From: Escherichia coli
GTDB lineage: Bacteria > Pseudomonadota > Gammaproteobacteria > Enterobacterales > Enterobacteriaceae
Reading direction: 5' to 3' (one strand)
Length of the DNA stretch: 64,000 nucleotides
Assembly: GCF_044324785.1 (NCBI RefSeq)
Contig: NZ_CP172127.1
Positions 18,371 to 21,300 of this stretch are shown here, piece by piece (positions within the stretch are counted from its first letter, which is position 1; every line of letters starts with the position of its first letter). A program made the position numbers.

Positions 18371-21300
18371 TAAATTTAATGAAGCATCTATCGCCGGTTA
18401 CGATGCTTTGCTTAACGCAGCCTGAGCCTGCATATAAACTTGTCATTTCCTGATTTTGATATGCTCATACCAACATCAGAAGAAGGTTAAATTATGGATG
18501 ACAAACCATTGCAGGCTCTGGCTAATAAATTCAAAACACCGGTTCAAGACAGTCAGCGTAATGGCTTCTTCCGACTGCAGCAGGTGAAGAAAAACCAGCC
18601 CCGCATTACCGGTATCCCCGTCAACCATCAGGGACCCCAGCCTGACATCGCCTGAACATATTCCCCCACGCAACCTGCCGCACTGACGTAGCCCACACAA
18701 ACGCGTTTCAGACTGCTCAGTAACTGTAGTGGCGTTTCATCCGCCTGTAGCACCGGATGCATGAGCGATTTCTTATAGTTATTCCTTTGCTTAATAACGA
18801 TTATTTCCGGGTCGTTCGCTCTCGTATTTTCTTTAATACGTCAGAGCTACCTGGGCCGTAATACAGCATGTACCAGACCCGACACGGCATTTCTGACCAG
18901 GGAAAAAGTCGACGATGAGTCGTTATATCAGCGCAAATGACGTCCTGTGGCTCCTTTGCGGTGACCACATTCACGTCTCCGGCGCTGCCAGAGGATATTT
19001 ATTTCAAGGATACGTAGCATTATGGCCAGCTTTAAAGACATCTGCCCATTCGCCCCCGCCATTCCCCCATCTTCCGTTAACACAGGCGTACGACGCCCGC
19101 CAGGGCGGCTCTTCCTGTCGGTGGAACTCAAGAATCAAATTTTGCAGAACATGAAGTATCTCAGCCCGCAAAAATTCAGCTGGGGTGATGCCCCCTGGCA
19201 GATCATTGACCTCAGTATCGCGGGCAAAGTGAACATACAGGTGGACAACAATACCATCATCACGTTGGGGACTCCCCTGAATCAGCAACATAACGAGTTC
19301 ATGATGGTCGCCAAATGGTGCGAATGGGCTATACAGCAGGATGGTTTGCAAGAAAACCTGCAAAAAAAACTGCACGACGTCCTGGAAGAAAACCGGCAAA
19401 ACAAACAGTCAGAAATTCCCCAAGAAGACCTGAAAGAAAGACTGAAAGAAATCAAGGAAGATATCCTGGAAGAAAACCAGTCAGCAAGCCAGATTGAAGA
19501 CCGGGCAGAAGCATTGCGCAGAATGAAGGAATGTCTCATAACAAGACAGAGTATGCTCGATCTTAGCAACCTTGGACTGACTTCACTCCCTGAAAATTTG
19601 CCTCCACATCTGATTGAATTTAACTGCAGTAGAAACGTGTTGACCGCGTTACCGGAGGTAATGCCAAAGGGGCTGAGAGTGCTTGAATGTATGGAGAACT
19701 TTTTAATCTTGTTACCGAAGGTGCAGCCCCCGAAACTGATGGTACTGAAGTGCTATGAAAACTATATTATCTGGCTGCCTGAGCTGTCGACTAACCTGAG
19801 AGTGATTAACTGTTCTGAAAACTTCTTGGAATTTTTACCGCCGTCGATGCCCCAGTACCTGTATAAACTGTCCTGTGCTGGCAACAATATTAACTCAATA
19901 CCTGATGAGGTGCTTGAGAACTTGACTCGCCTGAAGGTATTTGACTGTTCTAGTAACGATTTGATCTCTGCACCACGGCTGCCGCCCAAACTAATAATTT
20001 ACTACTGTGGAGAAAACAAGTTTAAAACGGTACAGGTGCCGCAGCCCCAGAGCCTGAAGGTGTTTGACTGTAATGGTAACCCGTGGGACAAAGACAATTT
20101 ACCGACGCTGCTCAAAGCCGTCGAGGGCCTGAAAAAACAGCAGGGCCTGAAGGACCTTTTGGGCTTTTTGCACAAGGAGGGCCAGATGAAGCTGGAGAAG
20201 CTGGAGAAGCTGGAGGATCTGGATGATCTGGATGACCTTATGGATCTGGAGCTCCTGGATGACCCGATACTCCTGGAGCGCGTGAAGGTACAGGAGGACC
20301 TGGAGCTCCTGGATCAACAGTTGGGCCTGTTGAGTCTGGAAAGACAACAGGACTCGCAGCCTGTTAATCAACAATCTGAACATGAACCCGAATCTGCATC
20401 AAGGGTAAAGCGTGATTTATCTGAAGTCGAGTTCGAGTCAACAATGAAGCGTAAGCGTTTTATGTAGAACGCCTGTGCGGTGAGTTCAGGTTCCGGGGAA
20501 ATAGTGTCCATCCTTTTAATGGACACTATCATGGGAAATGGCTCTGTCACATTAACGGCAACAGTTGCTGACCAGCCGGATGGATGATTTTTTTGCAACC
20601 AGAAGACGTTGCCTCCGATCCGGCTTACAACAAGTTACACCGTCACAACCGGGACCCGTAACGCCAGCGCGCACATCAACTCATAGCCCACCGTTCCGGC
20701 AGCGGCGGCGACATCATCAATTTTGATCTCCTTGCCCCACAGCTCAACTGGCGTACCAATACCCGCCTGCGGGCAAGGCGTTAAATCGACCGCCAGCATA
20801 TCCATCGAGACTGTCCCCACCGTCATGGTGCGCACGCCGTCCACTAAAACAGGGGTACCGGTAGGCGCATGGCGCGGATAACCGTCGGCGTATCCTGCGG
20901 CGACAATGCCGATTCGCTGCTCATCGCGCGCAGTATAGCGACCGCCGTAGCCCACACGCTCGCCCGCTGTTAGCGTCTGGACACCAATAATCTCACTGCT
21001 TAGCGTCATCACCGGACGTAATCCGGTATTGGCGATATCACGCCACTGACCGGACGGCGAAGCGCCATACAAAATAATGCCAGGCCGAACCCAGTCAAAA
21101 TGCGCTTCCGGGTGCCACAGAGTCGCCGCCGAATTGGACAACGAACGCCGACACTCCAGCCCTTCCGCCGCCTGCTCAATACGCACCATCGCGCTGGAAA
21201 TTCCATCAGGATGTTCCGCCTCGGCAAAATGCGACATCAGGGTCATTTCGCCAACATTCGCCATCGCCCGCAACTGCTGCCAGACGGTAAGCACGCGATC

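Follow-up and report, generated by a model that had tools for sequence, protein, structure and literature searches.

The inverted repeat and its surroundings

We studied a perfect inverted repeat in a 64,000-nucleotide (nt) stretch of Escherichia coli DNA (one strand of contig NZ_CP172127.1, RefSeq assembly GCF_044324785.1; this whole stretch is called the window), and compared it with insertion sequences (IS) of the IS66 family. The repeat lies at 20501-20529, between an open reading frame (ORF) with leucine-rich repeats (LRR; 19022-20467, plus strand) and dadX (20635-21705, minus strand), as placed by ORF calling and by the RefSeq annotation of the strain, N3. Its 11-bp arms, ATAGTGTCCAT and ATGGACACTAT, enclose a 7-nt loop, CCTTTTA, and the palindrome begins 33 nt past the stop of the LRR ORF and 105 nt past the stop of dadX.

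20501..20529, no strand: palindrome, homologue of the inverted repeat in the tnpA leader of IS66-family elements
20635..21705, minus strand: dadX, which converges on the LRR ORF and cvrA and whose 3' untranslated region contains the palindrome

When the window was searched for the palindrome pattern with up to three mismatches, one match was obtained, and none in 100 shuffles. The window has five perfect hairpins whose arms measure 11 bp or more and whose loops measure 3-12 nt, compared with 0.18 expected under a first-order Markov model. The palindrome would not be expected to arise by chance. The four further perfect hairpins of the window, with arms of 11-14 bp, are at 4906-4932, 36331-36356, 38288-38314 and 46438-46475. 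The exact 33-mer of the palindrome was found at one place per genome in 1,818 E. coli genomes.

Folded as RNA, the palindrome is predicted to form a hairpin of -14.3 kcal/mol on the plus strand and of -18.2 kcal/mol on the minus strand (z = -4.1). With G-C pairs at 4 of its 11 positions, it is not the G+C-rich stem with an immediate U-run that defines an intrinsic terminator. The bases after the stem are UUCCCC on the minus strand (where the RNA reads ...CUAU and then UUCCCC) and CAUGGG on the plus strand, and no U-tract of at least 5 was found beside the stem on either strand. An Rfam scan of 18200-20900 at a permissive threshold gave chance-level eukaryotic matches only, and a consensus promoter scan of the locus gave no promoter. 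A sequence-only reading of the window had described a perfect 11-bp inverted repeat between the LRR stop (20467) and the dadX stop (20635), without a flanking T-tract, and had proposed searching for it elsewhere in the genome. The repeat itself was read directly from the sequence and its placement agrees with the ORFs and the annotation. The statement on the T-tract is essentially correct, as the minus strand has only TT followed by CCCC and a terminator scan was empty there, and the search that was proposed returned a single copy both in the window and in each of the 1,818 genomes.

Relationship to IS66-family left ends

To place the palindrome in a family, we scanned one genome per species for TAGTGTCCAT-N3-12-ATGGACACTA, and 114 stretches matched. 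Pantoea stewartii accounted for 82 of these, nearly all about 47 nt from contig ends, and such crowding at contig ends is the signature of a multi-copy element. A further 16 of the 114 came from other Enterobacterales and from alpha-proteobacteria. All 98 of these stretches have the palindrome some 50 nt away from a terminus that reads GTAAGCG..., which we take to be the terminal repeat of the IS66 family. The ORFs straight after the palindrome matched HTH_Tnp_1 (PF01527, 1.4e-15) and then IS66 Orf2/TnpB (TnpB_IS66, PF05717, 1.3e-39). Because these two ORFs come directly downstream, the palindrome is assigned to the left end of the element, in the leader of tnpA. In the opposite orientation the P. 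stewartii contig ends would represent the element's right end and the loop would hold the stop codon of the transposase; the ORF and Pfam analysis ruled this out.

The remaining 16 matches (Geobacteraceae, Desulfobacteraceae, Yersinia and others) have no IS66 context and were set aside as unrelated or unexplained. Palindromes of this context-free kind with arms TAGTGTCCAT/ATGGACACTA outnumber the approximately 3 expected by chance. They are intergenic in metagenome-assembled genomes (MAGs) of Geobacteraceae and Desulfobacteraceae (L089-L093, L096, L101, L102 and L109), the arms of the delta-proteobacterial MAG palindromes being extended (...CCGG/CCGG...), and in Yersinia similis and Y. pestis (L100, L104) the palindrome adjoins a 247-aa ORF.

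We then used window positions 20451-20626 as a blastn query against plasmids. Query positions 1-88 aligned to IS66-like left ends with 77-81% identity and E values of 1e-7 to 2e-12. At the matches in Pantoea, Serratia, Edwardsiella and Klebsiella, an 'IS66-like element accessory protein TnpA' is annotated, while the Enterobacter sites are unannotated. Aligned by eye to the P. stewartii element, the similarity runs from GTAAGCG (20451) through the palindrome to about 20538-20548, where it stops. Judged by this homology, the palindrome has been left behind by an insertion sequence of the IS66 family and is neither native dadX sequence nor a free-standing site.

20451..20538, plus strand: IS66-family left-end remnant, with terminal repeat, palindrome-bearing leader and the first bases of a lost tnpA (blastn against plasmids)
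20451..20474, plus strand: left terminal inverted repeat GTAAGCGTTTTATGTAGAACGCCT (motif scan; intact elements start GTAAGCG...ACCGTCT)
20531..20533, plus strand: vestigial start codon ATG, 1 nt past the 3' arm, at the tnpA start position
20604..20628, minus strand: second IS66-type repeat tip GTAAGCCGGATCGGAGGCAACGTCT (reading inward), facing the first tip, at the right edge of the inserted segment (motif level)

The distance from the repeat tip (20451) to the palindrome is 50 nt. In intact elements tnpA starts 0-4 nt past the 3' arm, the same place as the vestigial ATG. The final 17 nt of the LRR ORF, with the stop codon (20465-20467), belong to the left terminal repeat as well; since the tip at 20451 is inside the ORF, its last five codons and its stop are IS-derived. 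The genes tnpA, tnpB (PF05717) and tnpC (DDE transposase) are absent from the remnant and only the ATG at 20531 is left. Without tnp genes, and with similarity stopping by about 20548, it is therefore a fragment and not an element.

The motif GTAAGC-N12-15-[AC]CG[TC]CT has only two matches in the 64 kb, at 20451(+) and 20628(-), and they face each other. The right copy of the terminal repeat, GTAAGCCGGATCGGAGGCAACGTCT, is weaker than the left copy, GTAAGCGTTTTATGTAGAACGCCT. The second tip (20628) coincides with an edge, as homology to the island-free junction of strain SK1144 resumes at 20629. Read from these motifs and this edge, the two facing tips enclose a 178-bp miniature IS66 remnant, which is the right end of the cvrA-dadX island.

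The cvrA-dadX junction in other genomes

The LRR gene is carried by 834 of 5,426 complete E. coli genomes, and the 256 bp around the palindrome are present in 4,298 of the same 5,426 (about 79%). About 1,100 E. coli genomes have neither the LRR gene nor the palindrome region. The empty junction of SK1144 is 46 bp long and has a different hairpin, without the palindrome. Outgroup junctions show no trace of the island or the palindrome either, and measure 105 bp in Citrobacter koseri and 64 bp in Salmonella. Given these short outgroup junctions, the short state is ancestral and the island is an insertion.

18382..20628, no strand: segment absent from island-free junctions, consisting of an IS256-like fragment, the LRR ORF and the 178-bp IS66-derived piece (comparison with K-12 and SK1144)

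K-12 has no LRR gene, yet it has kept the palindrome, the IS66 remnant and the last ~85 bp of the LRR ORF, and this tail is joined to a piece annotated in RefSeq as 'IS1414 (partial)'. As the LRR tail and the IS66 remnant are retained, K-12 is a deletion derivative of the island and not an empty site. O157 carries a deletion different from that of K-12. Among the 4,298 genomes with the palindrome region, only 1,818 have the exact 33-mer, and the variants differ mostly in the loop.

The sequence-only reading had placed the palindrome at the right edge of an LRR insertion, had suggested that it could be an insertion boundary element or a protein binding site, and had named its presence in insertion-free strains as the finding that would make it native. 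The comparison with an empty cvrA-dadX junction, which it had also called for, was made with SK1144 and fixes the insertion at 18382-20628. The right edge as first drawn was therefore only approximate, because the true edge, 20628, is 99 bp to the right of the palindrome. The palindrome does belong to the IS66 remnant that forms the right end of the island, but it is internal to it, 50 nt inside the left terminal repeat. Presence in a strain without the insertion holds for K-12 in a literal sense only; the truly empty junctions of SK1144, C. koseri and Salmonella lack the palindrome.

The leader inverted repeat of intact IS66 elements

For a view of intact elements, 79 loci were gathered through TnpB alone, so that the palindrome was not used for selection. 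Nearly all of their leaders have an inverted repeat equally far from the tip, with differing sequences; the arm pairs include GTGTCCAT/ATGGACAC, AATGTCC/GGACATT, GATAGAGTCCA/TGGACTCTATC, TAGAGCTCC/GGAGCTCTA, AGGTGCCCAC/GTGGACACCT and others. RNAalifold recovered the hairpin from 14 leader types, with compensatory changes at 6 of 8 pairs. In the 11-pair stem, 88% of cells are paired, compared with 71% after shuffling (0 of 500 shuffles are as well paired) and 30-45% with the partner shifted along the sequence. The intact copies (L120-L194) are 2.5-2.7 kb long with 8-bp target duplications, and complete copies have the palindrome only at the left end, the right end being without one.

In 11 gamma-proteobacterial leader types the 3' arm stops 0-4 nt before the tnpA start, which puts its GGA(G/C) core at the expected Shine-Dalgarno position. 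IS66 elements of Rhizobiaceae have an unrelated palindrome, TCCTAGTG/CACTAGGA, whose 3' arm contains AGGAG, 7 nt before the ATG. The pattern of variation, with wobble pairs, loops of 4-15 nt and arms overlapping the ribosome-binding region of tnpA, fits an RNA hairpin at least as well as a protein-binding site, as far as sequence comparison can tell. Originally the palindrome most likely served as a hairpin of the tnpA leader RNA, with the ribosome-binding region buried in it. Such burial would keep tnpA expression low, especially on transcripts reading in from outside. The leader hairpins of IS10 and IS50 mask the ribosome-binding site of the transposase on transcripts that enter from outside.

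Scanned for consensus promoters and terminators, two intact IS66 left ends gave no promoter and, at the palindrome, no terminator. A -10 element within the palindrome loop had been considered and was dropped, as the tnpA promoter could not be placed. Full-text literature searches returned no description of the IS66 leader palindrome and no experiment on it; the coverage of these searches was incomplete, so that this absence does not equal an undescribed state.

Two further arrangements were seen in the leaders. The left-end leaders of L145 and L198 have two direct copies of CATGGACACT plus CGTGGACA, all in frame with tnpA. In the P. stewartii-type element (L120, 1851-1880, and its equivalent in L126) the 3' arm opens a five-codon mini-ORF, ATG GAC ACT ATC GCG TGA, whose stop overlaps the tnpA start (GTGA), and a related element has an ATGA overlap. 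By its sequence, this overlap suggests possible translational coupling between the mini-ORF and tnpA.

dadAX transcript ends in K-12

In MG1655 the palindrome is at 1240055-1240083. SMRT-Cappable-seq of K-12 in rich medium (Rich_TTS table) lists two classes of dadA-dadX transcripts, both labelled 'novelTTS' (PMC6131387).

MG1655, start 1237524, end 1240088: dadA-dadX transcript, 17 reads ending and 15 passing (PMC6131387)
MG1655, start 1237537, end 1240087: dadA-dadX transcript, 13 reads ending and 6 passing (PMC6131387)
20496..20497, minus strand: presumed equivalents of the K-12 dadA-dadX transcript ends (MG1655 1240088 and 1240087), transferred by sequence identity
20574..20625, minus strand: imperfect long hairpin, arms 20574-20581 and 20618-20625, immediately past the dadX stop (from folding the dadX 3' region)

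The ends at 1240087/88 are 4-5 nt past the hairpin stem in K-12, and roughly half of the reads run through. By these long reads, the hairpin marks a real but partial dadAX transcript end in K-12. In this respect the dismissal of the palindrome as no textbook intrinsic terminator was too strong; the part of that claim which stands is the lack of a U-run.

At the present locus tnpA has been lost, and on the opposite strand the hairpin is within the dadAX 3' untranslated region. In the mechanism that we propose, the minus-strand hairpin (-18 kcal/mol, then UUCCCC) would end dadAX mRNA either as a partial terminator or as a stop for 3'-to-5' trimming. The palindrome has probably been reused as a weak or partial terminator or as an end-protecting hairpin for dadAX.

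The K-12 Term-seq ends at 1240019/20, equivalent to about 20564 in the window, sit approximately 10 nt past the 20574-20625 hairpin. This hairpin overlaps the putative right IS66 repeat. The TERMITe supplements gave nothing for this locus, and a supplement of transcription start sites from Cappable-seq had no entries in this coordinate range.

Weighing of the explanations

The best explanation overall is a fossil of an IS66 left end, which was originally the hairpin of a tnpA leader and is now a partial terminator or a trimming-stop hairpin of dadAX; we put its probability at about 0.8. Several results weigh against it in one part or another. With regard to its origin, blastn at a cutoff as loose as E = 10 matched 20545-20628, the right half of the 178-bp piece, only at this E. 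coli locus, the right-hand repeat tip is recognised by motif alone, and there is no 8-bp target duplication at the piece, its flanks being aatgaagc and aacaagtt. With regard to its present role, the consensus terminator scan, run on both strands, found no terminator at the palindrome. An arm change in O157 produces a C.A mismatch in the dadX-sense hairpin, and in eight strains the arms vary like the flanks (1/22 versus approximately 16/227 columns), so no special constraint is visible. In the Term-seq data of Adams et al., 3' ends are at 1240019/20 with none at the palindrome, and strong Rho-dependent read-through is seen downstream at 1240513(+). Considering the missing Term-seq end together with the Rho signal, the ends past the hairpin could be trimming products.

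These last results, along with the long reads of which about half pass the site and the lack of a U-tract of at least 5, are what would be expected if the palindrome were a neutral fossil, derived from IS66 and without a present function, with Rho terminating downstream and exonucleases trimming back to any stable hairpin. However, the ends of two independent transcript classes are no more than 1 nt apart and 4-5 nt past the stem, which is the geometry expected of hairpin-dependent termination. A trimming stop would also be a function of sorts, since it sets the end and the stability of the mRNA. We regard an entirely neutral fossil as rather unlikely. A different doubt concerns the original function, as the palindrome of IS66 could be a DNA operator or binding site for TnpA or for the transposase, of which E. 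coli would have an orphan copy. TnpA has a helix-turn-helix domain, the CC/GG core does not vary, and the 10-nt arms are the same from gamma- to alpha-proteobacteria despite a differing Shine-Dalgarno position. In two element types the half-site CATGGACACT is repeated directly and not inverted, so that no hairpin can form, three C.A mismatches are present on the sense strand of ISEc8-like leaders, and in the Rhodobacter type GAGG lies just outside the hairpin, 4 nt past the arm. For an operator, on the other hand, loop lengths of 4-15 nt and tolerated wobble pairs are not expected, and arm sequences are unrelated between clades while the position stays. The right end also lacks the palindrome, which is therefore not a site that the transposase binds at both ends alike. 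Owing to the mismatches, the direct repeats and the exposed GAGG, a TnpA operator stays a serious rival of the tnpA-leader hairpin, although we doubt that it is the correct one.

Two other origins fit far less well with the data. A native intrinsic terminator, which would have arisen at this spot to serve the LRR gene or dadX and would have nothing to do with mobile DNA, would suit the position between two convergent genes, 33 nt and 105 nt past their stops, but it would leave unexplained the 88 nt of contiguous homology to IS66 left ends, terminal repeat included, and the palindrome is missing from island-free E. coli and from the outgroups, and the LRR strand has no T-tract; we consider it very improbable. 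Hardly more credible is membership in a dispersed chromosomal repeat family, similar to repetitive extragenic palindromic (REP) sequences and bacterial interspersed mosaic elements (BIME) or to an active miniature transposable element. The small size of the palindrome, its place between convergent genes and the facing IS66-type repeats that bound the 178-bp piece would agree with it, but the palindrome occurs at exactly one place per E. coli genome, is unique in the window and has no target duplication.

The IS66 left-end fossil can be extended to a broader joint proposal, to which we give somewhat less than even odds: that IS66 elements across Proteobacteria share an undescribed, covarying hairpin masking the ribosome-binding site of tnpA, and that the 178-bp remnant, fixed in most E. 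coli including K-12, became the dadAX transcript-end signal after the insertion had displaced the ancestral hairpin behind dadX. Taken all together, the identity of the palindrome is settled, and the right edge of the cvrA-dadX island is corrected to 20628, with an IS66 repeat tip within the end of the LRR ORF. K-12 carries a fragment of an IS66-family element that is unannotated in the MG1655 RefSeq record, beside the annotated partial IS1414, and the 'novel' dadAX end of the long-read data is explained as a product of mobile-element debris. The locus also points to a conserved and apparently undescribed leader hairpin in the large and poorly studied IS66 family. The object itself is an ordinary mobile-element fossil and does not overturn current understanding.

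Other contents of the island and cvrA

19022..20467, plus strand: LRR ORF (481 aa), PF12799; the IS66 terminal repeat supplies the stop and the five codons before it

The homologues of the LRR protein are 437-486 aa long and were found only in E. coli and Shigella, and the protein search gave no longer, untruncated homologue. As the ORF ends inside the IS66 terminal repeat, it may be truncated. It contains in-frame repeats of 12 nt (19347-19490) and 9 nt (20188-20331). Its distant relatives include effectors of the SspH2/IpaH type with LRR and NEL (PF14496) domains, and the LRR ORF has no NEL domain.

An N-terminal fragment of an IS256-family (IS1414-like) transposase is located at 18419-18655, with an ORF at 18494-18655 (MDDKPLQALANKF...), and is bracketed by 14-bp inverted repeats at 18419-18432 and 18510-18523. 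The K-12 homologue of this piece, the RefSeq 'IS1414 (partial)', is inverted, and the small gene ymgM (b4740) starts within it. The K-12 deletion junction connects the IS1414 repeat tip with the final ~85 bp of the LRR ORF. On the other side of the island, cvrA (16637-18373) is a RefSeq pseudogene 'missing C-terminus' in N3, O157 and SK1144 and is intact in K-12, and the window has the full 578-aa ORF. The pseudogene call looks like an annotation artefact linked to an overlapping small ORF on the opposite strand.

Comparison with known systems

REP and BIME sequences share a consensus over many copies, whereas the palindrome has one place per genome. The 178-bp piece is closer to miniature inverted-repeat elements that arise from an IS by internal deletion, being likewise noncoding and bounded by facing repeats; it differs from them in being single copy, in having no target duplication and in a right repeat recognised at motif level only. 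Compared with Rho-independent terminators and 3'-end stabilising hairpins, some of which come from repeats or IS fragments, the palindrome is likewise a stable hairpin in a 3' untranslated region between convergent genes, with transcript ends 4-5 nt downstream in the long reads of K-12. In contrast to a Rho-independent terminator, it has 4 of 11 G-C pairs and UUCCCC instead of a U-run, about half of the transcripts pass it, and Term-seq does not list it.

The likeness to the IS10 and IS50 leaders lies in position and pairing. The IS66 inverted repeat follows the terminal repeat and precedes the first gene, compensatory changes preserve its complementarity, and its 3' arm, which overlaps a GGA/AGGAG ribosome-binding region, stops 0-9 nt short of the start codon. 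Unlike in IS10 and IS50, no promoter was placed in IS66, masking of the ribosome-binding site is a prediction, and some IS66 members break the rule.

The closest relatives are the tnpA-tnpB-tnpC elements of the IS66 family (IS66, IS679, ISEc8 and the multi-copy element of P. stewartii). Compared with these, the remnant is only a left end of about 88 nt with a possible right tip, has no tnp genes and no 8-bp duplication, and occupies one fixed chromosomal site in about 79% of the complete E. coli genomes. Nevertheless, it has the same GTAAGCG tip, with ...CGYCT approximately 20 nt further in, and its palindrome is equally far from the tip as in these elements, directly before the position at which tnpA starts.

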